32,239 bases of DNA from a virus (taxonomy: Duplodnaviria > Caudoviricetes): IMG/VR virus record IMGVR_UViG_3300020042_011096, positions 1 through 32,239 of that record; one strand, written 5' to 3'. The position numbers were made by a program, and so were the translations under genes. The stretch's first letter is position 1. Each line of letters opens with the position of its first letter. Shown here piece by piece: positions 1-27,300 of this stretch. The notes below the pieces were generated by a model, which searched no databases, was not told the origin of the DNA, and saw only the letters and a list, made by a program, of their open reading frames with translations.

Positions 1-121
1 GCCTCACGACAAGCTGCTGAACAAGCTGCATATATGCAATATGGTAATGCTGCCTTGCAAGCTGCTGTGCAAGGTACTGGTAAATTTGCCGGTGCTATGA
101 GTGAAGCTGAAGCTGCACAAA
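1..121. repeat. Terminal direct repeat, copy 1 (circular assembly overlap)
   Basis: Bases 1-121 are identical to 32119-32239. Confidence 0.97.
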
Positions 122-2553
122 GCGCATTGGAATCACAAGCAATTCAAGCGTCTGCTGCTGCACGTGCCATTGAAGGTGGTAATGTTCCAGTGGTTGAGGG
201 AATTCCAGTAGAAGGTTCTGCAGAAACTGCTGGAACTATAGCTCCATACCAAATGCCAAAATTTGGCTTTTTCAAGGAAGGAGAATCACCGCTAGCTGCT
301 CCAAGTACTCCACCGGCTGTTATTGCTCCACCGGATGCTAATCAAGTTGTGTCTGCAACTGATCCAGCAACTGAAGCAGAAATGCGTCACCTGATGCTTA
401 ATGAAGATCTTGATAAGCAATCGCAACAACGTGGTTTTGCAAATCAGGCTGCAGAAATGGGTTTAACACCTACACCTAAGCAAGCAGAAGCTGCAGCCAT
501 GAAAGCCGCTGATGTTGCAGTATTATCCGATGCTTTAAGTCCAGAAAATCAAAATATGGGAACAGCTGTTTCTCCTGGCATAACTGCATCAAATGCAGCA
601 CTAGGTGTTGCGCGTCGTGATGCAGATGGTGGTGCTGCACTGCCATTTACGTATAGTGCTCAAACAACTTCTGAGCAACTAAAGCCAAGAGTTGAATCAG
701 ATGTGTTTAATCCAACTGCCAAGGCAATGCGTGATCAGGCTAAAAAGGATGCTGTTATTGAGGCAGCTACTACCGGTGGAACTGCAGCAAAAAGAATTCT
801 TTCAGGACCAATTAGTGTTCCAGAAGTACCAGCCATGGCAGCGCCAGTAGTACCAGCAGCGCCAGTATCTCGCGTTGATGCAGGAGGTGGTGCTGCACTG
901 CCATTTGTTGAACCTAGCGCCGTTGATCAGGGCACTAGTAATATATTGCGCAAAACTTTACAGAGAATGCAAACAGCAGACGTTCAAGAAGTGGCTACTC
1001 CAGCTGCCCTTCAAGCAGCTATAGATAGTCCTGCCGTAGCTCTACCGGCTGATACAAAACTATCTGCAGCTCCAGCTGAAGTTCAACGTGCGGCGCAGGG
1101 ACCGGCTGGAGAAGCACTAGTGCCTAAAGTAAGTGATATTATGCCTATTCCCGGCATGGGCGGCGGTCTAAGTATCCCAGATCCACAAGCTATATTAACT
1201 CGCAGCACTCCAGAAGAAGATAAAGTTTATACAACGCAAATGTCAGCTGATATAGATAAACAAATCGCTGACCTAAAGCTACGCACTGGATTAGATATCA
1301 ACAAGCCTGCTGTTGCCAAAAGCATAGAAGCAGCTGGTAAGATTACAGGCTATACTCCACCAGCATATCCAAAGACTGCACGTGAACTTGCAAAAGAAAT
1401 AACAGACCAAGTTTGGAAGACTAGACCTCCTGGAAATCCATTGACGGCTTTGTTCATGCGAGATAACAGCGCACTCAACAAGCAGATTGCTGAAGATAAG
1501 GCTTTTCTTATAATCAGTGGAGCGCGTACAAAACATTCGGCTGAACATTTAGATAACTTTGTCAAGCTTGAAGAGTTTAAAACTAAGCAAAGTTTAGATG
1601 CCCGTAGAATGGATTTGCTTGAAGCTCAGGCATTGTATAATAATGCCAGGAGTGATAAAGCTGTTCGCTTTAAGACGGATTTGCCAAGTCCCGAACGCAA
1701 CAAACTGCAGGGATTGGACCTAGCTCAAAGATCATTAAGCAATTTATCAGAAACAACACGTGCCGCATTAGATGAAGGAAAAGGTCTGCCTCTTGGGACT
1801 GATCGTGCAATGGCAGAGGCATATGTTAAACTAAATGCTTCAAAACAAGGTAGCGATTCAGCTAGTATATCTGCTGGTACCGGTCTTCTAGGAGGAGCTA
1901 GTCTAAGTATTAGTCAAGCTAAATCAGGTAAACCGCTAGATGAAAAACTATTATTGGAATCTTTCAACGCCGTTGACCAGTCTGGCTGGACTCCAACGCA
2001 AAAAATAATGCACATGGAAAAGTTTAAAACTATCCAGAATCTTGGTAAGGCACTTGAAGGTGGCAAGCTAACAGATGCTGACTATGTTAAGTATGTTCAA
2101 ATTCTTATTAATAGCAGCGATCCACAAACGTATCTAATGTCAATTAATCGTCTTATGAAAGATAATTATGAAAACTACAATACGTATAAGACCAACTTAG
2201 GTGGAACCTACGAATCTAGTGCACTAGTTGGATTTGAACCTAAAAGTCCAGATTCGCTTTTCTTTAACGAAAAAGAGATAGCTTCTGCCTTTGCTGCACC
2301 GATTGGTGCAGAGGCGGCTAGACTGGCAGAACAAGGTCGGACTTATGGTGGACCAGGAACTTCTGTAAATCCACTAGTATCCGGAGCTGCAGGTACGATT
2401 CAAGCTTTAATAGCTAAATTGGCTACTCTAAATCCTAATAGTGCTGACGCAAATGCTATTAAAGCCGAAATCGCAAGATTACAAGCAGAAGCAAAAGCCG
2501 CTGCAGCTGCTGCCGCTAGCGGTAGTAGTGGTGGCAATCCAGATTTAGAATAA
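1..2553 (+). CDS. Large Ala/Pro-rich putative internal virion/ejection protein, 3' part (true start at 32035 across the circular join, ~878 aa)
   Basis: Frame is continuous from ATG 32035 through the overlap into the 34..2553 ORF. Low-complexity N-terminal half, helical C-terminal half; lies in a run of large Ala/Gly-rich genes after the tail genes. Function inferred from position and composition. Confidence 0.6.
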   Translation, partial: ASRQAAEQAAYMQYGNAALQAAVQGTGKFAGAMSEAEAAQSALESQAIQASAAARAIEGGNVPVVEGIPVEGSAETAGTIAPYQMPKFGFFKEGESPLAAPSTPPAVIAPPDANQVVSATDPATEAEMRHLMLNEDLDKQSQQRGFANQAAEMGLTPTPKQAEAAAMKAADVAVLSDALSPENQNMGTAVSPGITASNAALGVARRDADGGAALPFTYSAQTTSEQLKPRVESDVFNPTAKAMRDQAKKDAVIEAATTGGTAAKRILSGPISVPEVPAMAAPVVPAAPVSRVDAGGGAALPFVEPSAVDQGTSNILRKTLQRMQTADVQEVATPAALQAAIDSPAVALPADTKLSAAPAEVQRAAQGPAGEALVPKVSDIMPIPGMGGGLSIPDPQAILTRSTPEEDKVYTTQMSADIDKQIADLKLRTGLDINKPAVAKSIEAAGKITGYTPPAYPKTARELAKEITDQVWKTRPPGNPLTALFMRDNSALNKQIAEDKAFLIISGARTKHSAEHLDNFVKLEEFKTKQSLDARRMDLLEAQALYNNARSDKAVRFKTDLPSPERNKLQGLDLAQRSLSNLSETTRAALDEGKGLPLGTDRAMAEAYVKLNASKQGSDSASISAGTGLLGGASLSISQAKSGKPLDEKLLLESFNAVDQSGWTPTQKIMHMEKFKTIQNLGKALEGGKLTDADYVKYVQILINSSDPQTYLMSINRLMKDNYENYNTYKTNLGGTYESSALVGFEPKSPDSLFFNEKEIASAFAAPIGAEAARLAEQGRTYGGPGTSVNPLVSGAAGTIQALIAKLATLNPNSADANAIKAEIARLQAEAKAAAAAAASGSSGGNPDLE

Positions 2554-2569
2554 AAAATAGGTAAATAAT

Positions 2570-3715
2570 ATGGCTAAAATACAAATAGAAACAGCTAAAG
2601 ATGGCAAAACATATCTAGATGAAATAGAAGATACTGCACTGCAATCTACCAAGGAAAAACTAGAAGCAAAAGGATATTCCTTTAAGATAGTAGGACCGCC
2701 TTTGACTGAAGCCCAAGCTACCGGTATCATACCTACAGTTCAGGCAGAAGCTAGCCGCAAAGAATCAATGGTTGGTGGATTGTTACAAGGCGTCAGTCTA
2801 GGTACCGAAGATGTGTTGGGAGCCGACAAAGAAAGTATTCGTCTTCGTCAAGAGGCTGAACACCCTTATATATATGGTGCCAGTAAGTTTCTAGGATCGC
2901 TAGTACCAGGCATGGGTATGGCTGCAGGTGGAGCTGCGCTTGGTACAGCTAGTCCACTAGGACCGGGTGTTGGTACTGCAGTTGGTGGTGCAGCTGGCGC
3001 TGGACTTGCCGGTTTGATTGAATCATATGCGAGCAAAGAAACACCACCAGAAGGCAAAGGATTACCTAGCGTTAGCGATATGGCAATGGGTTTAATTTCG
3101 GGTGTTACTGAAGGTGTTGGTGCAAAGGTAGCTCCATTAGCTAGGAATGTATATCGTTCAGCACGTGATAAGCTTATTGGCAAGGAAATGGTTAAAGGAG
3201 CTACTGAACTATCTGAAATATCAGCTGAAGAGATAGCTAAAAAGTTAAATATTTTTAAACGTATACGTGACAAAGTAGCAGCAAATAAAAAACTAACTCA
3301 AATTGATGACTTGCTTAAAAGGTCTGATGAAGAAATATATGACGAACTAGATCCTAAAGATGCATCAGATATGTTGGTAATTAAAAGAGACATGGAAGCT
3401 AGCATTGCTGCAGAAGGTGGGACTAATCTTGGTAAAGTTGATAGCAGGATTGAAGTATTGGAAAATCAACTTAAGGCTGCAGAAGCTGCTACAGCACGTG
3501 CACTGTCTAATCCAGTTGTGGGTGGAGCAACAGCTGCGCTACCAATGGCAGTGCCAGATGTGGATATATCAGAAGAACAGCGGCTAGCCCTACAGAAAAA
3601 AGCTATTGAACGAGCCTATTATGAGGCACAACGTAGCAAGCTGGGCGCGCAAGCTGGAACAGCTAGCTCAATATATGAACCCAGTCCATCGGGTGTCCGC
3701 AAAGGTTCAATATAG
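2570..3715 (+). CDS. Putative ejection/DNA-transfer protein with glycine-zipper hydrophobic segment
   Basis: 381 aa; GMGMAAGGAALGTASPLGPGVGTAVGGAAGAGLAGL has GxxxG repeats typical of podovirus ejected proteins. Confidence 0.6.
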   Translation: MAKIQIETAKDGKTYLDEIEDTALQSTKEKLEAKGYSFKIVGPPLTEAQATGIIPTVQAEASRKESMVGGLLQGVSLGTEDVLGADKESIRLRQEAEHPYIYGASKFLGSLVPGMGMAAGGAALGTASPLGPGVGTAVGGAAGAGLAGLIESYASKETPPEGKGLPSVSDMAMGLISGVTEGVGAKVAPLARNVYRSARDKLIGKEMVKGATELSEISAEEIAKKLNIFKRIRDKVAANKKLTQIDDLLKRSDEEIYDELDPKDASDMLVIKRDMEASIAAEGGTNLGKVDSRIEVLENQLKAAEAATARALSNPVVGGATAALPMAVPDVDISEEQRLALQKKAIERAYYEAQRSKLGAQAGTASSIYEPSPSGVRKGSI

Positions 3716-3750: not shown

Positions 3751-6700
3751 ATGCCAACACCTTGGGATCAGAAAAAGAAAGCTGAAATGGCTCGTATGCT
3801 AGCAGAGGCTGAAGCTGACGCTATTAAGGGTTCAGACACGCCTGATAGTTTACTTTCAACACGTGGTTTTACCTTTGGTGGTCCAGAAGGTGGTTGGGAA
3901 GCATTCAAAGCTGGTTTTGGTAAAGAAGCTACATATGGCTTTGGCGACGAAGCAGCTGCAGCACTTTCCGGTGTTGAGACTACTGACGAAGAACGTATAG
4001 CAACCAATGAAGAAATGGATGCTGTTATAAATAAAAATGCCATTAATGCCGCATTAGGCTTTGTTGGTGGCGTAGTTCCTGCTGTTGCAACTCTAGGTTA
4101 CGGTGCTATTACGAATGCAGCAACCAAAGCAGCTACAGCAGCTGGTATGGCAGCTGGTAAGCTAGCGGCAAAAGAAGTAGTTAAAACTATTACTCCAAAA
4201 ATGGCTGTTGGAATCAATGCAGCTGAAGGCGCTGTTAGTGGTGTTGGCGAAGGTGAGGGAGTTGAAGGACGCATAGTAGGCGGCATTACAGGCGCTACAA
4301 TAGGTGGTCTTGTAGGCAGTGCTGCACAAGCAATTCCAGGTGTCACGCGTGCTGTAGCAGATACAGTTAGCAATGATAGAAAAATACAAAATGCTGCCAG
4401 TGAAATGGCCAAAGAAGATGCTGAACGTTTGGCAAGAGAGCTTGCTTTTCAGCAAAGCATAAAAGTAAATAAGTTTAATACTGGATATCCGTTACTTGAT
4501 GATGAAATAAAATCATTAAACAAACAAAAGGTAGCTGCTCGTAGAGAAGGAGATAAAGCAGCTGAAGCAGAAATAGACGTAAAACTTAAACCACTTAATG
4601 CATTAAAAACACAGAAACGCCCAGAACTTGCAACAGAAGCAGCAAGACTCGCAGCATTAGAAAGTAATAAAAATGCTGCCTTTACTAAAACCGGCTTTAG
4701 AGCGTCTATGACAGATGACGAGCTAGAAGCCGCAGCTGATGCATTAGAAGTTGCAAAAGCAGTTAAAGGTAAAAATCCTATTATAGTTCCACCTGAACGA
4801 AGTGTAGATGCATATGCACGCGAAAAGGATAGACGTTTAAATCCAAGAGCTAGAACTAATAAAAATCCTTATGGTAACGATCCAGCAGAAGAAGCTACAA
4901 AATTTGAAGATATAGATATAGGTGCAGAAGAAAAAGCTATTGAGACTGCAGTAAAAACAAGTCATGCAGCACGCAAAAAAACACAATCACGCGAATTCTT
5001 TAATAATCGTAGATTTTATGATCAAAATATTGATGACATAGAAGTTAAAGATATTTTAAAAAATCCAAATCATCCATTATTAGCGGAACCAATTCAAGCA
5101 GCTGCTAGCGCCAATAAAGGCTATCAACTAGCTATTAATGAGTGGCAAGCAAACAAAAATAAAAACTGGAAAACCGGTGAACGTGATTATATAAAGACCG
5201 GCGAAGAATTAATGCTTATGAATAGTGATTTAGCTCCAGTTCAACGTAGCAAATTAGCTTTTAAAGATAAGCCGGATCCAAATCAGCCCGGTGGATACTT
5301 GATTTCAGAAGAACCAGCGGTTAAAGATTTATATAAACCAAACAATACCGATGTTACTTGGGAACGGCAGGATACTTTTGGCCAAGGAGTATATGGTAGA
5401 GTTTATCCAGTAATTGATAGAAATGGTAAACCTAAAGCTGCAAAAATATCTTTTGTTGATATTATGAATCGTAGTATAGCAGCTGAAAGCCATGCGCACG
5501 AAAAAGAAGTAGCACGTGCTATACAAAATGTCAAAGCTAATGCAACGCCAACTGAAAAAAGTTTATATCTAAAACATTTTCCCGACTTTGAACAAGTACT
5601 TGATCGGCCAGATAATTCATCCGGTTATATATTTGTTATGGACGAATTGCGTCCAATGAATGATATTGAAAAAGCTGAACTATTTGAAGGACGTACAATA
5701 TTAAAAGAACTTTTAGAAAAAAAAGGTTATAAAAATGTAGACGCATATATGGATCCTTCTGGTAAAGATTTTATATTACCTATTGATAGCGACTTTTCTG
5801 CGCATCCTGCACCAGCTATTATGGCTAATTTACCTTGGAAGGATAAATATCGTCGTGTTTTATCTGCCGATGATTATAACAATATGACACCACGTGTTCG
5901 TAGTGCTTACAAAGCATTAGAGTTTATGTCATCAGTGAAGGGTATTGGCTGGGGCGATCTACATGCTCTTGGTAATGCCATGATTAATCCAAAAACTGGT
6001 GATTATGTTTTTCAAGATGTTGGTTTATTTCAATTACGTGATGCTTCAAATGCGCTGCATCGCTACGATAAAACTAGAAATTATGATCAACGCCTGCAGG
6101 CAGAAGTAGCTGGTGCCGAAGCACGTGTTGGCGATGCAGAAGCATTAGCAGCCGATATAGCTGAAAATGAAGCAATTGCTGCAGCACGTGCGCCTCGTCC
6201 TCTTGCTGATAAAGCAACAGTTGAACGTGCGCGTGCAGCAGCTAAAGATATAAAAGCATTATCACCGGCTGAAATGGCTAGACGATTTAAACAACCTAAT
6301 CGTAGTGCTGGCGCTATGGCTGCTGAACCGGGTTTTTATGAAGATGAAAATGGTCAAATGATGTTTTGGTCTGGCCAAGAAATGCGCAGTGTAAAACCAA
6401 ATGCTATTAGCACTAGACCTGCAGCTGCACCAGAACAAATGGAACTTGATTTTACAGAACAAATGGAACTTGATTTTACAGAACGTAATAACAATGTAGC
6501 ACTAGAACTTGCAAGACGAGATACGCCGTCAAATAAGAAATTTCCAGGAAAGCGTGCGCCCTCTCCACGGTCGCGCATGGCTCGTTCAAAAAAACCAACT
6601 ACGACTGCTATGGTACCACTTGATTCTGAAGCTATGATTGATAGAGCTAAAGGTCCAGGTATTCTTAGTCGCATTGGTAAAGCATATAGAAGTGCTACTA

Positions 6701-7164
6701 ATACTCCAAATCTTAAAGAGTTTAGAGAAGAAAGAAACTATCTTGAAAGTGATTATGATTTCTCTTATGCAAAACTAGCAAATGCTACAACTGAACGAGA
6801 AATAAGAACTGCTGAACGTGAACTAGATAAAGCTTATGATGATTTACGTGTGCATATTATCAGATATCCAGATATCATTGAATTACAAGATAAAGTAGAC
6901 TATGCGAATGAAATGGCTGCAAGGGTATACCGACGTATTGAAGCTAATAAAATTGGTGATTTGACCGATGAAGAAATTCTACAAAGAAGATTAATGAATA
7001 GAAAAGATCTAAGGGCTTTGCGTGCTGATGCTGAAAATGTCGGACAGGAGAAACGAGCTGTTGCACGTCAAATAGAAAACGTATTTTATAATTATCCGGA
7101 CCTGAAAAGAGAACTAGCTCCCGATCATCCTGTGCGCGCAGCTCGCCGAGATTGGCAAAGATAA
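3751..7164 (+). CDS. Large multidomain putative ejection protein: N-terminal Gly-zipper region, central protein-kinase-like domain, tandem QMELDF motif
   Basis: 1137 aa; SD GAGGG. Kinase-like motifs in order: GQGVYGRVY, AAK, HEKE, YIFVMDEL, WGDLHALGN, FQDVGL. Confidence 0.75.
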   Translation: MPTPWDQKKKAEMARMLAEAEADAIKGSDTPDSLLSTRGFTFGGPEGGWEAFKAGFGKEATYGFGDEAAAALSGVETTDEERIATNEEMDAVINKNAINAALGFVGGVVPAVATLGYGAITNAATKAATAAGMAAGKLAAKEVVKTITPKMAVGINAAEGAVSGVGEGEGVEGRIVGGITGATIGGLVGSAAQAIPGVTRAVADTVSNDRKIQNAASEMAKEDAERLARELAFQQSIKVNKFNTGYPLLDDEIKSLNKQKVAARREGDKAAEAEIDVKLKPLNALKTQKRPELATEAARLAALESNKNAAFTKTGFRASMTDDELEAAADALEVAKAVKGKNPIIVPPERSVDAYAREKDRRLNPRARTNKNPYGNDPAEEATKFEDIDIGAEEKAIETAVKTSHAARKKTQSREFFNNRRFYDQNIDDIEVKDILKNPNHPLLAEPIQAAASANKGYQLAINEWQANKNKNWKTGERDYIKTGEELMLMNSDLAPVQRSKLAFKDKPDPNQPGGYLISEEPAVKDLYKPNNTDVTWERQDTFGQGVYGRVYPVIDRNGKPKAAKISFVDIMNRSIAAESHAHEKEVARAIQNVKANATPTEKSLYLKHFPDFEQVLDRPDNSSGYIFVMDELRPMNDIEKAELFEGRTILKELLEKKGYKNVDAYMDPSGKDFILPIDSDFSAHPAPAIMANLPWKDKYRRVLSADDYNNMTPRVRSAYKALEFMSSVKGIGWGDLHALGNAMINPKTGDYVFQDVGLFQLRDASNALHRYDKTRNYDQRLQAEVAGAEARVGDAEALAADIAENEAIAAARAPRPLADKATVERARAAAKDIKALSPAEMARRFKQPNRSAGAMAAEPGFYEDENGQMMFWSGQEMRSVKPNAISTRPAAAPEQMELDFTEQMELDFTERNNNVALELARRDTPSNKKFPGKRAPSPRSRMARSKKPTTTAMVPLDSEAMIDRAKGPGILSRIGKAYRSATNTPNLKEFREERNYLESDYDFSYAKLANATTEREIRTAERELDKAYDDLRVHIIRYPDIIELQDKVDYANEMAARVYRRIEANKIGDLTDEEILQRRLMNRKDLRALRADAENVGQEKRAVARQIENVFYNYPDLKRELAPDHPVRAARRDWQR
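6431..6484 (+). repeat. Perfect 24-bp tandem duplication encoding EQMELDFT twice
   Basis: cagaacaaatggaacttgatttta occurs twice, followed by cagaac. Confidence 0.95.
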
Positions 7165-8518: not shown

Positions 8519-9142
8519 ATGAAAAGAGTTATACTGAGTTTAATATTAGCATTAACAACAAGCTGCTGTCATTTGTTTCAGCTGGATACAGCTGACGTAA
8601 TTGAGGTAGGAGCTGTATCGGTTGTGCGTGTTAAGACTGCAACCGGTTACTGTTCTGGATTTGCATTGGATAGCAGCACAATTGTAACAGCTGCTCATTG
8701 TGTCAGTACACCCAATGCGTATATAGAATGGGGAAGCAAAGTTATTCTAGGAGTCGTAGTTGCAGCTGATGTTACAAACGATGTAGCAATAATTAAAAGT
8801 TTATATCCAGCAGACGGTCTATTAGGATTAATGCCAAGGACTGCTAAGTTACGTAGAGGTGACCAACTTGTTACAGTTGCTTTTCCTGGATGGGCTAATG
8901 TTCAAAATGCATTTGAACTTGGAGTCGTAATTGACAGCGATGAAAACGTAATATTAACTTTAGATAGCTGTTTGCCTGGAGATAGTGGTGGAGCAGTCTT
9001 AGATGTATATGGACAGGTTGTTGGACTGTGCAGTCGTGTATCACCACGAATTGCTATGTACCCGGGTTCTGAAGGTCTTGAGCATTCTCATAGAGATGTA
9101 GCCATCGTGATACCTATCCAGAAAGCATTAGATTTGCTGTGA
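8519..9142 (+). CDS. Trypsin-like (S1) serine protease, probable lipoprotein
   Basis: TAAHC (His), NDVAII (Asp) and PGDSGG (Ser) triad motifs; N-terminal MKRVILSLILALTTSC looks like a signal peptide with lipobox Cys. Confidence 0.9.
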   Translation: MKRVILSLILALTTSCCHLFQLDTADVIEVGAVSVVRVKTATGYCSGFALDSSTIVTAAHCVSTPNAYIEWGSKVILGVVVAADVTNDVAIIKSLYPADGLLGLMPRTAKLRRGDQLVTVAFPGWANVQNAFELGVVIDSDENVILTLDSCLPGDSGGAVLDVYGQVVGLCSRVSPRIAMYPGSEGLEHSHRDVAIVIPIQKALDLL

Positions 9143-9849: not shown

Positions 9850-10323
9850 TTATTGAGCAACGGCAATGTTTTGTTTGTGATCCTGAATGATATGCATCTC
9901 TTGTTTAGCATTTAGATAAGCTTGATGTGCTTCTTGTTCAGTTTCGTATAGTCCAAGAAATTTATTTTTGCGATTTATCACTATCTTCGCTTTCCATTTT
10001 TTATTAATGCTATCCCAATGATAGCCCTTGGCTTTGGTATTGAACAAGTTTTCTTGGTGTGTAACTAATCTTAAATTTGACAATAAGTTATTACTTTTGT
10101 TTCCGTCAATATGATCAATGTATAGTCCTGCAGGAATAGGACCATTAGCTAATGCATATATAACACGATGAAGATATATGTTTTTTGGTTTTTTTGTTTC
10201 TGGATTCCAGATTCCGTGGGATATATAACCGTTACAGTAACACCAGGCACCATAAGCTTCCACGGCATCACGGAACTTATCGTCAATCATTAATTCAATC
10301 TTGCTTTTTCGTTTCTTGCCCAC
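9850..10323 (-). CDS. HNH endonuclease with C-terminal AP2-like DNA-binding domain
   Basis: LHRVIY...IDHIDGNKSNNLLSNLR...ENLFN; KWKAKI...FLGLYETEQEAHQAY; GTG start with SD GAGG. Confidence 0.92.
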   Translation of the reverse strand: MGKKRKSKIELMIDDKFRDAVEAYGAWCYCNGYISHGIWNPETKKPKNIYLHRVIYALANGPIPAGLYIDHIDGNKSNNLLSNLRLVTHQENLFNTKAKGYHWDSINKKWKAKIVINRKNKFLGLYETEQEAHQAYLNAKQEMHIIQDHKQNIAVAQ

Positions 10324-10780: not shown

Positions 10781-10817
10781 AAAAACAGAGAGCCTGAAGG
10801 CACAACTTTCAGGCTCT
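10781..10817 (-). terminator. Intrinsic terminator/attenuator just upstream of the endolysin
   Basis: 10-bp stem agagcctgaa/ttcaggctct (10789-10817) followed on the minus strand by ctgttttt. Confidence 0.75.
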
Positions 10818-10948
10818 TTGAAATACATTTAATCACAGGAGTTACAAAATGTCAAAACAAACTAAATGTATTTTTTTCCCTAAAAGAATAATACGCTTGC
10901 ACAGAAGTAACTAAAAGTCACTGACACTTACTGTTTTCAGTAGTGTCA
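10781..10948 (-). ncRNA. Candidate ~165-nt small RNA or attenuated leader of the lysis operon
   Basis: Bounded by a near-consensus sigma70 promoter and a terminator; contains three hairpins. Confidence 0.55.
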
Positions 10949-11070
10949 GGATCAGTATAGACCCTGTCTTCTGGAATGTCAAGGTCTTCTTCAGAGATTT
11001 CTTCTTCAAGGAGAAAATCCAGGAATTCTATAATTGTATCTATTTCTAAGAGCATGATGTTTTTATTCAT
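10918..11070 (-). CDS. Possible 50-aa highly acidic protein
   Basis: MNKNIMLLEIDTIIEFLDFLLEEEISEEDLDIPEDRVYTDPDTTENSKCQ; no SD, and it overlaps a promoter. Confidence 0.4.
   Translation of the reverse strand: MNKNIMLLEIDTIIEFLDFLLEEEISEEDLDIPEDRVYTDPDTTENSKCQ
10954..10982 (-). promoter_or_regulatory. Sigma70-type promoter
   Basis: Minus strand TTGACA-17 nt-TATACT. Confidence 0.8.
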
Positions 11071-11099
11071 ACAAGTAACTAGTATCTGATTAGTAGAAA

Positions 11100-11400
11100 A
11101 GCAGTTTATATTTCAGTCTTTCTTGTTATTTGACAGCTTTATGACTGAGGTCTTTTCTTTTTTCGTTAGACACAGCTTCAGTTAACTATATAGGCGAGCG
11201 TAAAGCCTCGCAGAGGCTGCGCATCGCCGTTGGTAAGTCAGTCAAAGTACAGTCTCTTCTGTTTTTTATTCAGTCAAAGTACAGTTTTTTTATTTAGTTT
11301 CTTTTTCTTTTACTGACTCAATCACCGGTAGTAATCTAATCCACGTAAAGAACCCCTATACAATGTTACTGTAAATCAGTTCAGTAATACAAGCTGTTAA
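11100..11400. other. Candidate replication origin region
   Basis: Part of the longest non-coding stretch. GC-rich nested hairpin at 11193-11228; 16-bp direct repeat at 11238-11253 and 11270-11285; adjacent T-rich tract; many TCAGT/ACTGA motifs. Confidence 0.4.
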
Positions 11401-11424
11401 ACTTGCACTACATCTGATTGAAGA

Positions 11425-11650
11425 AAACTGGTACCGATTGCCAGTTTCGTATTTGGGTACTCTAGTCGCCAGGACTATTTGTGGTCAACACTAGGTAAAT
11501 CTAATGAGGACGAATACGAAGAGAGTCCGATATCGTGAGCTTTCATTAGGAAAGCCTATCACTCGTCTTCTCGCGGTACCGGAACTATATGTCCCGTTAG
11601 TATAAGTAGCATGACTTACCGCGAAACGCCAGCTCTATTGCTAGATTTCG
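11425..11650. ncRNA. Candidate multi-stem structured RNA or ssDNA element
   Basis: Nested inverted repeats at 11425-33/11439-47, 11445-55/11511-21, 11539-44/11550-55 and 11571-78/11617-24; no ORF of 60 aa or more. Confidence 0.4.
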
Positions 11651-11689
11651 GGAGAAAAAGAAAAAAACTTGTTCAAGCAGCTAGAGGTC

Positions 11690-11718
11690 TTGATCTATTC
11701 ATATTTTAGGTCTAGACT
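11690..11718 (+). promoter_or_regulatory. Sigma70-type promoter for the HNH gene
   Basis: TTGATC-17 nt-TAGACT just upstream of SD CAGGAG. Confidence 0.6.
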
Positions 11719-11737
11719 AGAAGAACAGGAGTTACAC

Positions 11738-12199
11738 ATGAGCAGACCCATAAATGTTACAGACAGAACTAACGTTGAGATTACGGTAGACGAAAAGATG
11801 GTAGATAAAGTCTTGCAGTACGGCAGCTGGTACCGTAATGCTAATGGTTATATTGTTATTGACCAAGAAACCGAACGTGGCCAAATAACGCAGGTATTAC
11901 TGCACCGACTGGTTTATGAACTAGCGTTCGGACCACTAGCCAAGGGTCAGTACGTTGAGCATCTTGATGGTGATCAGGATAATAACCTGCTAGACAATAT
12001 TACTATTGTTAATACCCGTCATTATCTTGACAGCTTGACTAACCGACGTGGATACTTCTGGCATACAAAACGCCAACTATGGCAAGCCCAAGTCTCATTT
12101 AACGGTAAAACAAAAATTCTTGGTTGGTATAAGACAGAAATAAAAGCTTATGAAGCGCATATGAAGGCACGAACCATTTACAAGCTAGCCAGCGTTTAG
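11738..12199 (+). CDS. HNH-AP2 protein with divergent active site
   Basis: Start reassigned to ATG 11738 (SD CAGGAG); LHRLVY...VEHLDGDQDNNLLDNI; AP2-like WQAQV...LGWYKTEIKAYEAH. Confidence 0.85.
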   Translation: MSRPINVTDRTNVEITVDEKMVDKVLQYGSWYRNANGYIVIDQETERGQITQVLLHRLVYELAFGPLAKGQYVEHLDGDQDNNLLDNITIVNTRHYLDSLTNRRGYFWHTKRQLWQAQVSFNGKTKILGWYKTEIKAYEAHMKARTIYKLASV

Positions 12200-12436: not shown

Positions 12437-12778
12437 ATGAAATATGCTAATATACTAATACATCAGGAGAAGTTGCTGATTGTATTTGAATACTTACGCC
12501 AGTTACCAGATAAAGTGACAAACCTGCATAAACTACATGAGGATTATCTAGCATTTTGTCGCGCCAAGGTAAGCATTAAATATGCCATTGGAAAGTTTTC
12601 TTTTGCTGGGATAATCCAGAAATTAGGTTGTAGACGGTGCAGAAGCACAGCTGCTAGCCGTTGGATATTGCCTGATGAGTTTGATGTAGAGGAGTTGATA
12701 GAGCTGATCTCAGAAGAGACAAATCGTTTAATAGCCATTGGCGACGATGCACGTGCTAATTTTGATAGATTGAAGTAG
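12437..12778 (+). CDS. Putative winged-helix DNA-binding protein resembling the C-terminal domain of D5/P4-alpha-type primase-helicases
   Basis: LHEDYLAFC...IGKFSFAGIIQKLGCRRCRS...RW pattern. Confidence 0.5.
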   Translation: MKYANILIHQEKLLIVFEYLRQLPDKVTNLHKLHEDYLAFCRAKVSIKYAIGKFSFAGIIQKLGCRRCRSTAASRWILPDEFDVEELIELISEETNRLIAIGDDARANFDRLK

Positions 12779-14081: not shown

Positions 14082-15458
14082 ATGGGTATTGGAAATCTAA
14101 ATGCGACTGATGTCGTCGCTTTCGCTGCACGCGAAGGCAACAAGATGATTGAAGCGCAAGTTAATATGAAAGCAAAGCTTTTCGCGGCTCTTGATAAGAC
14201 GCCGATGAAGGGTCGTCGTGCGGTAATCAACGTTGTCAATGGTGGTCTATCCTCAACCGCGCAGGTTTTGGACTTTGGCGCGCTTCCAACGGAAGCCGCT
14301 ACAGTTCCAGCGCAAGGTTTCGTTGACGCTGTTGGTTATGTTTCACGTTTGGGTCTTGGTCGTATCGCGCTTGAAACCCTTTCAGGTGTTGATGACTCCG
14401 CTGACCTCCTAGATCTTCAGCTGCAGATTGCTGCTGATGACATGGCTCGTCAAATTGGTCGTTCAGTGTTTGGTTCAGAACTTGCTGCTCCAACTGTTGC
14501 CGGTTCAACGGTCACTCAAGCCATCGCCAGTGGTGTAACCGTCATGACTGTTGTTTTCACTGGCGGTCTAAGTGACTTCCGTGAAGGCGAAGCTTATGCT
14601 TACGAATCTTCACTCGCAGCAGCCGTTGCTCTTTTCAATTCGTTTATGGTGCTCTGCACTAACGTCGCTATCACCTCTGATAACGTTGTTACTGTAACGT
14701 TCATCTGCGGTCCCGGTGGTGTTCCTGGCTACACGGCAGGAACCCTTTCCGACCAGCTAGTTGGTGCTAACGGTACTGCCGGTGTTATCCGTACCGCTGA
14801 CCGTTTCTTCCTACGTGGTAATCGCTTGGAACCAGCTGCTGGTACGACAGTTGGTACTCAGACGGCTCGCGGTGCCAGCAACCTTGGTATCGTAGATCTT
14901 CAGCTTGTGACCAGCCAGTCAGCGACTCTTCACGGTCTTCCTGCTGGTGCTAACGGTTGGACTGGTCTTACCTTTACTGGCGTTGGTTCACCAACTGCCG
15001 AATTGTTCATGGGTAAGTCTAAGATCCTTCAGGCACGTGCTGGTGTTGCTCCTACGCATCTTGTTCTTGGCACTCTTGCTTCCGGTGCCTATGGTGCCGC
15101 GCAGATCACCAATGGTACGGGATTCGGTCTTGGCGCTGCTCTAACTCAGCCACGCCGCAATGTTGATGGTAAGCTTGACAAGTATGGGAAGGACGGTGAT
15201 ATGGAGTCGGGACTTGCGATGTTTGGTCGCCCAGTTCTTATTGACGACAACTGCCCAACGACTGAAGCCTTTATGATCAATAAGGATTACCTGAAGATTG
15301 GCGAATGGAAGAAACTATCTGCTGAAGACGAAGGTGGTTCCCCGCTCTTGCTCAGCCGTTCAACCTACAGCAAGGAAGTTCAGTTCAGCTGCATCTACAA
15401 TATGATTGCGCGCAAAAGAAATGCGCATGCTCGTCTCACCGGTGTAACTATTGTCTGA
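14082..15458 (+). CDS. Major capsid protein (probable HK97 fold with insertion domain)
   Basis: 458 aa; follows scaffold. D-x-A-R-Q-I-G-R backbone-helix-like segment, FGRPVLIDDNCP...AFMIN, and C-terminal RNAHARLTGV; high-expression-like codon bias; strong terminator downstream. Confidence 0.85.
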   Translation: MGIGNLNATDVVAFAAREGNKMIEAQVNMKAKLFAALDKTPMKGRRAVINVVNGGLSSTAQVLDFGALPTEAATVPAQGFVDAVGYVSRLGLGRIALETLSGVDDSADLLDLQLQIAADDMARQIGRSVFGSELAAPTVAGSTVTQAIASGVTVMTVVFTGGLSDFREGEAYAYESSLAAAVALFNSFMVLCTNVAITSDNVVTVTFICGPGGVPGYTAGTLSDQLVGANGTAGVIRTADRFFLRGNRLEPAAGTTVGTQTARGASNLGIVDLQLVTSQSATLHGLPAGANGWTGLTFTGVGSPTAELFMGKSKILQARAGVAPTHLVLGTLASGAYGAAQITNGTGFGLGAALTQPRRNVDGKLDKYGKDGDMESGLAMFGRPVLIDDNCPTTEAFMINKDYLKIGEWKKLSAEDEGGSPLLLSRSTYSKEVQFSCIYNMIARKRNAHARLTGVTIV

Positions 15459-15606: not shown

Positions 15607-16089
15607 ATGAAAAATAATATAGTTGATAATGGTAATGGCACAAGCACGGTAATAATAGATTCTAAGAAGCATGGTATTAATCTAATACTTATTGACACAG
15701 ATATGGTAGATATGGCCAGCAAGATACGTTGGTGTGTCAATGATAGCAGACCAACCAAGGCAGGTCCATCACGTTATGCAGTAGGGTACCAAGACGGCAA
15801 GTTAATTAAAATGCATAGATACCTGCTCAATACACCACGCCACCTACAAACAGACCACATTAATGGTGACCGATTGGACAACCGGCTGTGTAATCTACGT
15901 GGTGTCTCAAATCAAGAAAATAGTTTTAATCAGAAAAACAGCAAAGGCTATAGCTATAATGCACGTTCAAGAAAGTGGCAGGCACATATTAAAATTAATG
16001 GTAAACTGCTATACTTGGGACTATATGCTACTCCAGATGAAGCACACGCAGCATATGTAGCAGCCAAAACAGTATGGCATAAAATCTAA
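15607..16089 (+). CDS. HNH endonuclease with AP2-like domain
   Basis: MHRYLL...TDHINGDRLDNRLCNLR...ENSFN; KWQAHI...YLGLYATPDEAHAAY; SD CAGGAG. Confidence 0.92.
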   Translation: MKNNIVDNGNGTSTVIIDSKKHGINLILIDTDMVDMASKIRWCVNDSRPTKAGPSRYAVGYQDGKLIKMHRYLLNTPRHLQTDHINGDRLDNRLCNLRGVSNQENSFNQKNSKGYSYNARSRKWQAHIKINGKLLYLGLYATPDEAHAAYVAAKTVWHKI

Positions 16090-16095
16090 AACAAC

Positions 16096-16139
16096 TAACC
16101 CGGTACCAGCCGGGTTATTTTATTCAGAATATTATTATG
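16096..16139 (+). promoter_or_regulatory. Hairpin plus 29-bp repeated element, candidate late promoter
   Basis: taacccgg-taccag-ccgggtta; 16111-16139 is identical to 28862-28890. Confidence 0.6.
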
Positions 16140-16520
16140 GAACTAGTACTATCAGTCCGAAGCAAACAGCGCCTATTTGACCGTAAGATGGCTAGAGAAG
16201 GATACGCTGCAAAGATATGTAAGTGGGAAGATAGAAATGAGTGTATGTTGACTCATATTGATAGAGTAAATACTACTGCTGGTGTTATTACATATAGAGT
16301 TAAACGTAATAATAACATGGGTGAATTCAATAGCGCTATCTACAATATACGTGCTAGCCGTATAATCCGTGATACCGACCGTATGCTTAGAGCTTTCAGA
16401 GATCCACAAGAGCGTCAAGCACGTATGGACGCTGTCCGCCAGCAAGAACTGCGAGATGAACTTAAAGATAAGTTCCGTGCTATGTGCAATCGTAACATGT
16501 TCTTTGGCCAAATAGGATAA
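16137..16520 (+). CDS. Hypothetical protein in the head module
   Basis: 127-aa ORF between capsid/HNH and adaptor. Confidence 0.7.
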   Translation: MELVLSVRSKQRLFDRKMAREGYAAKICKWEDRNECMLTHIDRVNTTAGVITYRVKRNNNMGEFNSAIYNIRASRIIRDTDRMLRAFRDPQERQARMDAVRQQELRDELKDKFRAMCNRNMFFGQIG

Positions 16521-16527
16521 ATAATAT

Positions 16528-17187
16528 ATGTCATTGAATATAACATCTGCAATCGCTAGAGTAAGAAACTATCTGGACGATCAAAACAATGGTACAGATG
16601 CTCGTTGGAGTGATGCTGAAATAAAGCTATCTCTTGAACTAGCACTAGACGTAGTAACCACTGAAGCAGTTCAGGGCGGCGTGCATCAGCAATTTCGTCA
16701 AGTAGCTACTAGCACTGTTTCTGGTGGGCTTATTACGGTTCTAAGCAATATAAAGATTATTTCTGTATTCATGTCAAATGGTAATAGCCGAGTAGCAATA
16801 CTTCCAGCTGCTCCAAGAAATCGTTCTTTTATTGACCGTGCTACCAGCGGCACAATTGAATATGATTATATCGCAAAGAATAATGTCAACTGGGCTTCAG
16901 CCACACCGGGCACTGAAATAATAACTTATGGTGGTGTAGACATAGACGATAATATCTTTGACGCTTATCTGTGCTGCATCGCTGCCATGGACCTAGTAAT
17001 CAAAGAAGGCGAAGTATCTCCAGTATTAGCAGATAGAACTGAAAAATACCGTAGAGGTGTGATGGGCAGTCCAATTACTGGACAAATCCAGGTATTTACC
17101 GGCACACGTAATCAGCTAGCTCCTGCAGCCTATTACCAGCTGTATTACTATAAGAAATCGCCAACTACTTTGGAAGTATACCGCTAA
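16528..17187 (+). CDS. Head-tail adaptor (podovirus tubular protein A-like)
   Basis: AIARVRNYLDD...RWSDAEIKLSLELAL N-terminal helical pattern; adjacent to the portal gene. Confidence 0.7.
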   Translation: MSLNITSAIARVRNYLDDQNNGTDARWSDAEIKLSLELALDVVTTEAVQGGVHQQFRQVATSTVSGGLITVLSNIKIISVFMSNGNSRVAILPAAPRNRSFIDRATSGTIEYDYIAKNNVNWASATPGTEIITYGGVDIDDNIFDAYLCCIAAMDLVIKEGEVSPVLADRTEKYRRGVMGSPITGQIQVFTGTRNQLAPAAYYQLYYYKKSPTTLEVYR

Positions 17188-19004
17188 TGAATAAAAATAC
17201 ATACTCAAAAACTGAACGTGAGAATATCGTCGGCGATAAAGAACAGATATTAGGTTTGTTAGAAGAACTAAAAATACTGCCTGCCACTGTCTTTCGCCGC
17301 ACGCTAAATCAAGGTCGTGCTAATGAAAAGATTGCAAGTGGTAATCTCAGTACAGATAGCATTATCCGTAATAATCTCACAAATGCTTATGCAGACCAAG
17401 ATACTCCACGTGCTCCACAGCAAATATTAAATAATCTTGTGCTTACTTGGGCTGCTCTTATGAGCAAAGACCGTCAGTCTGTTTATGCTGTGCCAGTATC
17501 AAACAACCTAAATAACACCAGCGCAGCTGAAATATTCACAAAGATTATTGAATACACGGAGGCAGAAGAAGATATTAGTTACAAGTGGCACACAACCGCT
17601 ATTTATAATGCATTCCATGGCAGTGCATTCATGTATATCTATTTCAATCCAGAAAAGCAACGTGTTTGCTGGAAGCCATTAAGTATATTTGATGTTTATA
17701 TAGACGACAAGGCTGATGCGGCTGATATTGATTATGTTGTCATTCGGGAATACATTGACCCATGGACAGCAGAAGAAATGATATCTCAGAATAATCCAGA
17801 CTATAATGGTGAACCACCTGTTGAGAAATATCAAGACGGTGCTGGTTATGACCACGATGGCGTAGCTAAATACTGCATATGGTATAAGCCTTGTCCACGC
17901 TACAAGACCGGACTGTATGCCTGCATCATTGGCGGCGAACTAGTAGAAAGTACAGAATATCCTTATGTCTTCAAGGACAAAGATGGAGAAAAAGATATTG
18001 CACTATTACCGGTTGCTTGGTGGTATTGCCGTAAGAACCGTGGTACATCACTAGGATTAACTTGGGCAAGTGATTGCGCTCCACTACAAGTAGCACTAAA
18101 CGAACTAAATAGCAAGCTGTTACGTAATGCTCAGATTAGCCAAAGCTATTTGGTTATTCCAAAGAGTTTAAATAACAATGAAGGCTTTGACCAAGTCAAC
18201 CAAATCATATCTACAGACCCTGGCAGTGACATGGGCAATATTAACTGGGTCAATCCTGCGCCTATTGATCCTAATCAGGTTAACGAAAAAGAAAACTTAA
18301 TTCGCAGCATGTATGATAGTGCTGGTATCAGTCAGCAAACTGCCGGTCAAGCCGGTGGTAGTTCAGGCAGAGCTTTGGCCTATCAAGCCGAACTTGACAC
18401 ACAAAAGCACGCTGATGCCTTTAAAAGCTTTGAGGTTGCAATCCAGCAAGCTTGGCAACTAGACCTGAAACTAAAACAAAAATATTATACTGTGCCACAA
18501 AAGATGTTATTAGATGATGGCATGACAGATATAGTATATTCAGGTACAGATATCATGGGCGTAGATATTAGACTTGAAGCCCGTTCTGCACGTGAAGGCG
18601 CACAATCAACCAAGGTACAAAATGCCAAGGGTGATATCGCTAACGGCTTGGCTGGTCCAGAAACCCTGACAGGCTTATTGCCAGATAGCGCCACGCAGAT
18701 TAGTGGAGCAATCGCCGAAGACCTTATAAACCGTTATATTGCTGGGGAAGAAGTGCAAATCACTCCTGAAACAGTTGACCCAGCTTCATTTGTAAATGCG
18801 CTAGATAAGAAAATAAAATCTGCATTACTTAATAGAGATATTAAAACTGCAGAAGAACTTAACGCTTTCAAAACGCAGTTCTTAAAAGATATGGCTATGC
18901 AACAGCAACCAAGTGCTGAACAACAGTCCAGTGCTGGACAACCTGCTGCACAACCATTACCTGAAAGTGTTACAAATGAAAATATTTCAGCTCAACCCCA
19001 ATAA
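17187..19004 (+). CDS. Portal protein (P22-like)
   Basis: 605 aa; helical; LQVALNELNS, AGISQQTAGQ...SSGRALAYQAE motif; Gln-rich tail. Confidence 0.85.
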   Translation: MNKNTYSKTERENIVGDKEQILGLLEELKILPATVFRRTLNQGRANEKIASGNLSTDSIIRNNLTNAYADQDTPRAPQQILNNLVLTWAALMSKDRQSVYAVPVSNNLNNTSAAEIFTKIIEYTEAEEDISYKWHTTAIYNAFHGSAFMYIYFNPEKQRVCWKPLSIFDVYIDDKADAADIDYVVIREYIDPWTAEEMISQNNPDYNGEPPVEKYQDGAGYDHDGVAKYCIWYKPCPRYKTGLYACIIGGELVESTEYPYVFKDKDGEKDIALLPVAWWYCRKNRGTSLGLTWASDCAPLQVALNELNSKLLRNAQISQSYLVIPKSLNNNEGFDQVNQIISTDPGSDMGNINWVNPAPIDPNQVNEKENLIRSMYDSAGISQQTAGQAGGSSGRALAYQAELDTQKHADAFKSFEVAIQQAWQLDLKLKQKYYTVPQKMLLDDGMTDIVYSGTDIMGVDIRLEARSAREGAQSTKVQNAKGDIANGLAGPETLTGLLPDSATQISGAIAEDLINRYIAGEEVQITPETVDPASFVNALDKKIKSALLNRDIKTAEELNAFKTQFLKDMAMQQQPSAEQQSSAGQPAAQPLPESVTNENISAQPQ

Positions 19005-23375: not shown

Positions 23376-23627
23376 ATGGCAACTAAAAAGAATACACCAG
23401 TAACTGCAGCTGAATTACGCGTAGCACTAAGCAAGCTCGGCTCATCTGCTATTACTATACTAAATGATATACTAGTTGATAAAACTGTTGACAACAAACT
23501 TAAAGTGGATGTTTGCAAGTTTATCATCAGCCAAGTACTTGACGATCCAGCCATCCTTAACAATGGCGGTGATAATCTAGTCAAGCTAGCTGAAATACTA
23601 CGCGCTCCTGTTAAGGACGTCAAGTGA
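23376..23627 (+). CDS. Putative terminase small subunit
   Basis: 83 aa, helical; overlaps the start of the large terminase. Confidence 0.55.
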   Translation: MATKKNTPVTAAELRVALSKLGSSAITILNDILVDKTVDNKLKVDVCKFIISQVLDDPAILNNGGDNLVKLAEILRAPVKDVK

Positions 23628-25090
23628 TTAAACCTAATACAGAGAATCTGGTAAAAGTAAGCGAACTTATAAATGTCATGGACCAGAGTACCGGTGAACT
23701 GAAGCCATGGCGTTTATATTCTCACCAGATTCGTGTATTAGAACACTTAATATCTCATGACCGGTCAATATGGCTAAAAGCACGTCAGCTTGGTATAAGC
23801 ACGCTGATGACATATTATGTATTAATGTTAGGTATACTTAATGCAAATATAAGAGTTGCTGTTGTCGCTGATAACTTTAATAACAGTATTGGATTACTAG
23901 AGAAAATCCGTGATATTTGCAATCAGCTTGGCATTAACCTAAATACAGATAATCAAAAACGCCTTATACTTGGTAATGGTTCTTCATTTGACGCCATTAC
24001 TGTTAACTCAGCATTAGGACAAGACAACACAGCTGGTCGGTCCAAAACATTTCACGTATTATTACTCAGTGAAGCTGCATACTACAATAACTCACATGCT
24101 GTATTCGCATCATTAACGTCATCTGCTATTCCAGATGCGATTATCATTGTAGAAAGTACTGCTACTCCAAGCAAGAACATGTTCAGGAGTTTATGGGATG
24201 GCAGTAACTATTTTAAAAGTTTCATCTCAATGCAAGAGCATGATAACTACATTAAAGAAGAAGCTGCTATATCTGATGACGAGTTTAAATTGCTGCAGGA
24301 GCAGTTTGGTTTCACATCCAGACCACACGCCGCCTTTTGGTCATACAAGCTTCAGAATGAATTTGGCGGCGATACAAATAGGTTGCTGCGCGAGTATCCA
24401 ATTCTTGAAGCACACAGCTGGTCCAGTGCTAGCGGTAGATTCATTGATACTGACCCACTTATCCGGCAAGCAGTGCGCACTATAAGCAAAACACAAATAT
24501 ATACAGAAGCTGTATTAGGTGGACATTATATATTCGGTGTTGACGTTAGTGCTGGTGTAGGTAGAGACTATAGCTCTATCGTTGTATATGACCTAAAGAA
24601 CAAACAGATAGCAGGCTTGTATCATTCCAACACCGATAAGATGGATACAATAGCTCAAGAAATTAAAACTCTGCATAGCTATTTCCGACCACACAATATC
24701 TATATAGAGAAGAACGGTATTGGTGGCTTCTGGCTTATCCCTGAGTGCCAAAAGCTAGGTATACCAGTAAATGATATTGTTACGACTGAAGCGTCAAAGT
24801 ATGCTGGATTGCTATTAGTCAAACAAGCAATAGAAACTGGATATCTGTCTGCTGATGCCCACTTCAGCAGTGAAGCCAGTAGCTTAACGTATTCTCTCAA
24901 GGGAGAAAAAGAACAATTTAATCATGCAGGAGATAGTTTGATGGCTTGTAGTTTTTGTCTACTAAAGGCAGATGATTATAAATACGCTGTCAATTTACCA
25001 CCACCGCGACCAACAGCACCATCAGGTGCGTGGGATATGGAGCGTAGCTTGCGGATTGGTGAGAAGCAAAAAAGGCGGAATAAAGAATGA
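23624..25090 (+). CDS. terL: Terminase large subunit
   Basis: Walker A KARQLGIST, Walker B LLLSEAA, coupling motif IVESTA; nuclease motifs GVDVSAGVGRDYS, IEKNGIG and GDSLMA. Confidence 0.95.
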   Translation: MIKPNTENLVKVSELINVMDQSTGELKPWRLYSHQIRVLEHLISHDRSIWLKARQLGISTLMTYYVLMLGILNANIRVAVVADNFNNSIGLLEKIRDICNQLGINLNTDNQKRLILGNGSSFDAITVNSALGQDNTAGRSKTFHVLLLSEAAYYNNSHAVFASLTSSAIPDAIIIVESTATPSKNMFRSLWDGSNYFKSFISMQEHDNYIKEEAAISDDEFKLLQEQFGFTSRPHAAFWSYKLQNEFGGDTNRLLREYPILEAHSWSSASGRFIDTDPLIRQAVRTISKTQIYTEAVLGGHYIFGVDVSAGVGRDYSSIVVYDLKNKQIAGLYHSNTDKMDTIAQEIKTLHSYFRPHNIYIEKNGIGGFWLIPECQKLGIPVNDIVTTEASKYAGLLLVKQAIETGYLSADAHFSSEASSLTYSLKGEKEQFNHAGDSLMACSFCLLKADDYKYAVNLPPPRPTAPSGAWDMERSLRIGEKQKRRNKE

Positions 25091-25503
25091 ATTATTTTAG
25101 ACAGCTATTTGAGAATACAAGTATCGCCGATAAGGCTCTTACGGAATCTGAGCAGATTGAGCTTGAAGAACTAGAGGAAACAATAGAACTTGCAAAGACC
25201 GACCTGTATGGCAGAATCAAGCTTTATGTTGACATGTACTTGACGCCAACCCAGGCACGTCGTTGGTACCTTTATTTCAACACAGGATCAATCAGGAGCG
25301 TCGCTGAAGCAGAAGGCGTGTCAACTGCCGCAGTTTCCAAGAGCCTTATAGGAACGCGTCCTAATGAAAGTTCAACTAGCAGGATCAAAAGTCCTGTGGA
25401 CAAGCTGCAGAAGATTGTGCTAGCAGATGTGGAAATACAATCACTGCTACTGCGCATCCGCACGGCTAGTGATGCCATAAACGAAATCAAGGAGGGATAT
25501 TGA
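25087..25503 (+). CDS. Sigma70 region-4/HTH-type transcription regulator
   Basis: LTPTQARRWYLYF..GSIRSVAEAEGVSTAAVSKSL. Confidence 0.75.
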   Translation: MNYFRQLFENTSIADKALTESEQIELEELEETIELAKTDLYGRIKLYVDMYLTPTQARRWYLYFNTGSIRSVAEAEGVSTAAVSKSLIGTRPNESSTSRIKSPVDKLQKIVLADVEIQSLLLRIRTASDAINEIKEGY

Positions 25504-27290: not shown

Positions 27291-27300
27291 TTAATATTCC

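Follow-up and report, generated by a model that had tools for sequence, protein, structure and literature searches.

The window analysed here, a stretch of 32,239 nucleotides, is the whole of the IMG/VR virus record IMGVR_UViG_3300020042_011096 (Caudoviricetes) and carries direct terminal repeats of 121 bp. One of its genes encodes a protein of 1137 amino acids (aa), in which a predicted kinase-like domain is followed by two adjacent copies of the hexapeptide QMELDF. This hexapeptide resembles the motifs by which bacterial proteins bind the sliding clamp (beta clamp, DnaN). The following features are found in that gene.

3751..7164, plus strand: cysteine-free protein of 1137 aa, a putative ejection (internal virion) protein of the polyvalent type, last in a run of cysteine-free Gly/Ala-rich genes and with N-terminal look-alikes.
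5356..6039, plus strand: protein-kinase-like domain (aa 536-763) with Gly loop G544/G546/G549, K565, E584, catalytic loop D736-L-H738...N742 and D756-V-G758.
6431..6484, plus strand: 24-bp tandem duplication of 2.2 copies (Tandem Repeats Finder), present in contigs of the runs X1-X3 and single-copy in the relatives L003, P0002 and P0003.
6436..6453, plus strand: copy 1 of the hexameric clamp-binding-like motif (QMELDF, Q896-F901), which fits Q-phi-x-[LM]-x-[FL] (PMC11139829); residues 893-901 are modelled in the DnaN pocket.
6460..6477, plus strand: copy 2 of the same motif (Q904-F909), outside the confident contacts of the best model.
6514..6615, plus strand: basic patch after the motif (aa 922-955, 11 Lys/Arg, 1 Asp/Glu), a possible DNA contact, poorly kept in relatives.

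The original prediction, which was made from the DNA letters alone, started from a perfect duplication of 24 bp. This duplication is confirmed by Tandem Repeats Finder with a period of 24 and a match of 100%; the window contains only one other tandem array, which is weaker. It lies in frame within the open reading frame (ORF) and encodes EQMELDFTEQMELDFTE, the two glutamines Q896 and Q904 starting at nucleotides 6436 and 6460, respectively. Both copies are located about 130 residues C-terminal to the kinase-fold domain, in agreement with the predicted position downstream of a kinase. AlphaFold models the stretch as coil with a predicted local distance difference test value (pLDDT) of about 30, a low confidence which is, in view of the shallow alignment, no proof of disorder.

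Contigs from four freshwater runs (X1-X4), one of which may be the source sample, served as an assembly check. A single contig of 151 bases from X2 spans positions 6377-6527 with 0 differences, a contig of 54 bases from X1 lies exactly over the repeat at higher depth, and a contig from X3 covers the repeat with only 10 bases on its left; X4 gave no cover. The single-copy form is absent from all contigs of these runs. Since contigs of three of the four runs contain the repeat, one of them bridging it without differences and none being single-copy, an assembly artefact is unlikely. Not a single base differs between the two copies, and P0002, P0003 and L003, which are the nearest relatives, have one motif copy each; the doubling is therefore recent and private to the lineage of the window. 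An exact tandem copy is found in none of the 10 other kinase-bearing family members.

For clamp partners the consensus sequences Q-phi-x-[LM]-[FL] and Q-phi-x-[LM]-x-[FL] with mostly acidic flanks are described (PMC11139829), and according to the same review phage display on the clamp selected the peptide LQLELDF with low-micromolar affinity. QMELDF fits the hexameric form, as had been proposed, if Met at position 2 is counted as aliphatic, and it differs from the phage-display peptide in one position. The residues 896-911 comprise 6 Asp/Glu and 0 Lys/Arg, which agrees with the acidic-flank criterion. In shuffles of the 1137-aa protein (2000) one match to a loose hexamer pattern arises in about 6%, and one match to a strict pattern, written after seeing the sequence, in 0.9%; the second copy adds nothing to this chance estimate because it is a DNA copy of the first. 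Among the 40 ORFs of the window that were tested QMELDF is the sole strong motif of its kind, two further matches being located in the portal and in a 362-aa protein. A box of the PCNA-interacting (PIP) type, defined as Q-x-x-hydrophobic-x-x-aromatic-aromatic, was also considered and is rejected, as positions 7-8 after the Q are T and E.

Residues 880-922 were modelled in complex with two chains of E. coli DnaN in three runs and compared with three controls. The docking score was 0.68 in all three runs and 0.00 for the best of the three controls; the mark used for this score is reached by 51 of 78 solved pairs and by 2 of 108 mismatched pairs. The contact agreement was at least 59%, with a pLDDT of 48-50 for the partner in the complex. 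Q896, M897, L899 and F901 contact the DnaN residues 172-177, 242, 247 and 360-365 in the model, which correspond to the canonical pocket named in PMC11139829. Because complexes of clamp and peptide have already been solved, the model indicates likeness and not binding.

The model also bears on the proposal that each copy occupies one of the two pockets of the same clamp dimer, which would result in a high-avidity lock. The dimer has two pockets (PMC11139829) and the protein two motif copies, but although two protomers were offered, confident contacts are made to one protomer and by copy 1 only. The copies are separated by two residues, and the 8-residue period covers at most about 29 A when extended (3.6 A per residue), which is less than the 35 A channel between the symmetry-related pockets (PMC11139829). 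No relative has the tandem. This part of the original prediction did not hold, and binding to two pockets is nearly excluded due to the short spacing and the engagement of copy 1 only. The second copy probably arose by recent slippage and would at most aid rebinding to the same pocket.

Motif conservation was analysed in 11 kinase-bearing family members and in 7 lineage representatives. The counts do not draw on a hand-picked selection of 18 proteins, some of which match in the N-terminal part only or are probably chance matches (QLMLLE, QLLLLR). A wider pattern, Q[LIVM]x[LMF]x[FLI], which allows Phe at position 4, is present in 8 of the 11 members, compared with a mean of 1.7 and a maximum of 6 over 500 shuffles and with none for the reversed pattern, and in 5 of the 7 representatives (shuffle mean 1.1, maximum 4). 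The published pattern is found in 7 of the members, one of these matches (QLLLI) being probably spurious. In four members, which form one side of a branch (91/93), the motif stands after the kinase (QMELDF, QMEFDF), in four others at a shared N-terminal site (QLELPL twice, QLPLPI and QLKFPF). The two sites are mutually exclusive, as none of the 11 proteins has both. Loss at one site together with gain at another would be the behaviour of a short linear motif under selection, as far as such a small sample of sequences can suggest. In P0004, P0071-P0073, P0075 and P0076 a weaker QPE[LMI]xI is seen about 12-14 residues past the N-terminal hexamer, possibly a degenerate partner motif.

Beyond the family, EQME[LF]DF was identified in 44 viral loci, which form 24 families after BLAST grouping, against 4 for the reversed peptide as the one control. 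Some of the matches are located in portals or very short frames. Several small viral proteins end in QME[LF]DF or consist largely of it (L012:3992-4114, L004:375-521, L006:1958-2233, L008:3971-4174 and L047:3929-4357) and are candidate stand-alone clamp binders; they include a frame of 40 aa that contains the motif twice, and a helix-turn-helix protein similar to excisionases with a C-terminal motif.

The locus L044 encodes an LPD38/GHKL polyvalent protein, P0007, whose residues 299-311 have 12 of 13 residues in common with the product of window positions 6415-6453. Beyond this stretch P0007 has no similarity to the window protein, and convergence and linker exchange are candidate readings of the match. 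By means of the motif-free C-terminal region of P0007, 64 LPD38 homologs were picked. In the whole proteins the published motif occurs 64 times, with 44 expected (maximum 57 in 60 shuffles; 28 for the reversed pattern). For a test by cluster the query P0007, itself found by its motif, and 7 of the 63 others, which are shorter than 1700 aa, were excluded and the proteins were clustered at 50% identity; the test region, residues 250-700, was chosen after the whole-protein counts had been seen. Of the 12 clusters, 8 carry the published motif in this region, with 9 motifs in total against an expectation of 1.1 and a maximum of 4 over 200 shuffles. Pentamer and hexamer forms interchange, multi-copy arrays are present in LPD38 proteins, and patterns with E, K, R, N, D or T instead of Q give counts at chance. 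A cryo-electron microscopy and proteomics preprint (10.64898/2026.04.10.717836) reports a high virion abundance of an LPD38-bearing polyvalent protein, for which it suggests a role in ejection; this favours the view that the LPD38 comparison family consists of putative ejection proteins.

These counts have to be weighed against the possibility that QMELDF is a chance linker sequence, or serves another partner, for example another virion protein, and that its doubling is neutral slippage. The frequency of the loose hexamer among shuffles would agree with this, as would the flanks, which are about as well kept as the motif among the closest relatives, the 3 of 11 relatives without the motif, and the EQME[LF]DF matches in portals and very short frames. 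However, the family uses two exclusive sites with different spellings of the same consensus, the reversed and non-Gln controls are at chance, and the model docks the motif in a known pocket. We regard a chance origin or another partner as rather improbable. Of the checks that the original prediction had named, the model with DnaN passed its controls, within the limits of its likeness to solved complexes, and the motif recurs in homologs. It is probable that QMELDF functionally binds the clamp, for whatever purpose.

As judged from sequence and predicted fold, residues 536-763 appear to belong to the protein-kinase-like superfamily. G544, G546, G549, K565, E584, D736, H738, D756 and G758 are invariant in all six aligned proteins; following the general anatomy of kinases we take the respective positions to be the Gly loop, the beta-3 Lys, the helix-C Glu, the catalytic Asp and the Mg-binding Asp. 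Every Foldseek match listed has a kinase fold, protein kinases being in the majority and the best E value 1.3e-3, and PHROGs gives a weak match to the kinase family phrog_18305 (E 0.008). The AlphaFold model of the 1137-aa protein has a mean pLDDT of 46.9, with low confidence after residue 757. A profile search revealed 142 proteins, many of them stand-alone proteins of 250-500 aa, several of which exceed the Pfam Pkinase cut-off. The similarity stops shortly past the DxG, and the stand-alone relatives end there, with the DxG near their C-terminus. P0077-P0208 make up a large set of unnamed stand-alone kinase-like proteins of 250-500 aa, whose Atlas clusters are viral. When the kinase domain was compared by sequence with solved structures, chance matches only were obtained, and no tblastn match of this domain was found in 50,697 cultured-phage records at E up to 1.

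Two known kinase groups were considered and rejected. All 11 members have W-x-D-[LM]-H as their catalytic loop, with no insert between the conserved His and the catalytic Asp, and the lack of a His-insert-Asp arrangement speaks against membership in the polyvalent-protein kinase clade (Iyer 2017). Membership in the family of the T7 kinase gp0.7 (T7K) is rejected as well, since the 9 members examined have DVG, DIG, DTG or DMG and not DPV; the missing tblastn match and the absence of a shut-off family in PHROGs speak against a closer likeness.

The gene run of which the 1137-aa gene is the last encodes cysteine-free, Gly/Ala-rich proteins of 362, about 878, 381 and 1137 aa, and includes the two following neighbours.

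2570..3715, plus strand: cysteine-free neighbour of 381 aa, a putative ejection protein without clamp-like motif.
1..2553, plus strand: 3' part of a cysteine-free gene of about 878 aa, a putative ejection protein without clamp-like motif; its start at 32035 places it across the terminal repeat.

From its gene position, the lack of Cys throughout the 11 kinase-bearing family members and its N-terminal look-alikes, the 1137-aa protein is likely an ejection protein that is delivered from the virion together with the DNA. The N-terminal part is nearest to unnamed phage clusters; the nearest named match, the P22 gp16 ejection domain at 0.90, is a lead only. No Pfam family was found at E 0.01, neither an LPD nor any other named polyvalent domain, and NCBIfam was likewise empty. 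The relatives swap their cargo: P0002 has two kinase domains, P0004 and P0072 have an ART-PolyVal-like insert below the cut-off, and P0138 and P0143 have ART-PolyVal above the cut-off together with a related kinase. Because of this swapping of enzyme cargo the 1137-aa protein appears, by sequence comparison, to be a polyvalent protein that lacks any named LPD domain. The second kinase-like domain of P0002 is complete and follows from aa 946 onward directly after a single QMEFDF, which places the motif between two kinases.

Our preferred reading, to which we give about an even chance, is that QMELDF is a working beta-clamp motif which tethers a likely packaged and injected kinase to clamp-coated DNA and so concentrates it on DNA-working proteins. 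The protein would be carried in the head of the phage and enter the cell along with the DNA, and QMELDF in its flexible linker would tether it weakly, with micromolar strength, to host sliding clamps on DNA. The predicted kinase, if it acts on proteins, would be concentrated on replication, repair and DNA-sensing defence proteins, and the purpose may be to render the host permissive, as the phage relies on a borrowed replisome. Clamps pile up behind replication forks as a docking platform (PMC4284645), and because they stay on the DNA there, a tether to them would enrich the kinase near proteins of replication, repair and defence.

Several findings weigh against this reading. The published pattern is found in 4 of the 7 representatives only, which is marginal (fraction of shuffles as high 0.052) and includes the probably spurious QLLLI, while the wider pattern was set after looking at the sequences and the sample is small. 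P0005, P0006 and P0074 are without the hexamer at either site. The DnaN model resembles many solved clamp-peptide structures, and E. coli DnaN is a stand-in for the clamp of the phage's host. The kinase model is weak, no Foldseek match reaches E 0.001 or better, and a small-molecule kinase, the methylthioribose kinase, is among the matches. Finally, the motif is not enriched in stand-alone kinase relatives (6 of 97, with 7.7 expected) nor in 16 other long kinase relatives, and it occurs commonly in LPD38 proteins that have no kinase family listed. Due to this distribution a kinase-specific targeting module is rejected as a general rule.

The same distribution leads to the main rival explanation, according to which the motif serves the ejection scaffold and not the kinase. 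The injected protein would then recruit clamps, or dock the genome near forks, for replication or repair by the host Pol III. Since the stand-alone kinase relatives show no excess and the LPD38 proteins are enriched, the motif appears to belong to the linkers of ejection proteins whatever their cargo. It would also fit that the only strong motif of its kind among the ORFs tested is located on such a scaffold, and that the genome seems poor in replication enzymes. In line with the genome without replication enzymes that the original prediction had assumed, no polymerase, helicase or primase was detected, with 38 ORFs scanned in Pfam and PHROGs and 26 in NCBIfam, many ORFs being without any match. 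On the other hand, no DNA-binding domain is recognised in the 1137-aa protein, which has only the poorly kept basic patch, and 3 of 11 relatives have no motif. We consider a role for the scaffold unlikely.

The phage appears to depend on host replication. It is a podovirus-like freshwater phage of 32 kb, for which the following structural and packaging genes were assigned.

14082..15458, plus strand: podophage-type major capsid protein (NF033394, E 1e-13, below its cut-off).
17187..19004, plus strand: portal protein (phrog_156, E 2e-12).
23624..25090, plus strand: terminase large subunit (phrog_2, E 2.5e-25).

An M15 endolysin gene is also present. CheckV estimates a completeness of 19%, which is at odds with the terminal repeats; the relative P0005 is encoded on a 31.7-kb contig, similar in size to the window. 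Scans of viral contigs with the terminase, the 1137-aa protein and the alignment A1 revealed no related genome, and a metagenome scan gave 2 short loci, one of them identical to the window. In cultured phages the terminase has 23-27% identity only, among the matches listed.

Some further features of the genome were noted. Three HNH endonuclease genes (9850-10323, 11669-12199 and 15607-16089) are present within the 32 kb, and a trypsin-like serine protease with a signal-peptide-like start (8519-9142) follows the ejection cluster. Two ORFs, of 113 aa (12437-12778) and 138 aa (25087-25503), matched no named family in Pfam, PHROGs and NCBIfam; the former recalls, in our estimation, the winged-helix end of D5-type primases, and the latter presumably contains a helix-turn-helix-like stretch. 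A 47-nt repeat of 83% identity (16108-16154 and 28859-28905) is associated with the start codons at 16137 and 28888, which it shortly precedes, and is a candidate late promoter or regulatory site. A long AT-rich gap between divergent genes (10806-11668) with a 30-nt direct repeat (11229-11290) is a candidate origin or control region, and two large tail-like genes (25899-28833) have minus-strand orientation although they lie within the structural block of the plus strand.

Among known systems, the hexameric motifs of bacterial clamp partners (RQLVLGL of Pol IV, LQLELDF, and the Hda-like QLPLxL; PMC11139829, PMC3919608) share with QMELDF the arrangement Q-aliphatic-x-L-x-F, acidic flanks, a disordered setting and, as predicted for QMELDF, the same pocket. 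In contrast to these, QMELDF is located on a protein of a phage structural cluster with a kinase fold and not on a DNA enzyme, is doubled head to tail, and is a predicted binder. The polyvalent proteins of phages and their kinase clade (Iyer et al. 2017, PMC5512222) resemble the window protein in being large and modular with swappable kinase and ADP-ribosyltransferase domains, and in their proposed injection; their kinase is described as lacking the C-terminal subdomain, which may also hold for the window kinase. The window protein differs from them by having no detected LPD domain and no His-insert-Asp in the catalytic loop. The main text of that paper mentions the clamp 0 times.

The T7 kinase is comparable to the window protein as a phage kinase with a C-terminal element, which in the window protein would bias the predicted kinase toward DNA-associated proteins; the DNA-binding tail of the T7 kinase steers it to nucleic-acid-binding proteins (PMC13645617). 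T7K is characterised by DPV and by a shut-off domain that binds DNA, whereas the window protein has DVG, no such domain detected, and instead a putative clamp-motif tether. Unlike T7K, the window kinase gene lies among virion genes and is without tblastn match in cultured phages. The word clamp is absent from PMC13645617.

Clamp motifs on a phage protein are already known from MuC of phage Mu, a member of the Mor/MuC family (PMC12867686 and a preprint), which has two clamp motifs per protein and engages the host clamp. MuC is a small transcription activator that is made during infection and has pentameric motifs at its two ends, while the window protein has 1137 aa, is probably injected, carries hexamers 8 residues apart and has a kinase fold. 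Gp168 of the staphylococcal phage Twort, as described in PMC11139829, is also aimed at the host beta clamp, but plugs the DNA channel and blocks loading without using the hydrophobic pocket, unlike the modelled QMELDF. No published report of clamp motifs in ejection or polyvalent proteins, or paired with a virion kinase, was found in a search that left most subscription papers outside.

MuC is also of importance for a further explanation, in which the protein would act as a sponge, competing for the clamp with host Pol III, Hda or repair partners and so blocking them, at entry or by late accumulation. Over-expression of MuC is lethal because its clamp motifs disturb the regulation of DnaA (PMC12867686), and the multi-copy arrays of LPD38 proteins as well as the copy added here by the doubling would suit a sponge. 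Opposed to this, there are many clamps on the DNA (PMC4284645), and peptide affinities are micromolar compared to nanomolar values for the Pol III core and the clamp loader (PMC11139829). Most family members are single-copy and the phage appears to need the host replisome. A virion, moreover, delivers few copies of an ejection protein. A sponge is therefore quite improbable in our view. The original prediction had left open whether a tether to the clamp would serve to hijack or to inhibit the replisome; the tether itself is in line with the consensus, the recurrence in the family and the model, but inhibition is the weaker of the two options, because the phage appears to depend on host replication.

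More generally, ejection and polyvalent proteins may use clamp motifs as an address label, and the protein described here would be the first virion-delivered, clamp-tethered kinase, phosphorylating proteins of the replisome or of DNA defence before phage expression starts; we put this forward only tentatively, as a doubtful extension of the preferred reading. The duplication itself is of minor importance, and it is the single motif and its turnover in the family which are of interest. In the literature consulted, phages make use of the clamp by way of the transcription activator MuC and the channel plug Gp168, and a clamp motif on an injected enzyme would, if true, be a third use. It would explain how few copies of a delivered enzyme find targets that are bound to DNA, and would provide a handle on the variable linkers of polyvalent proteins.

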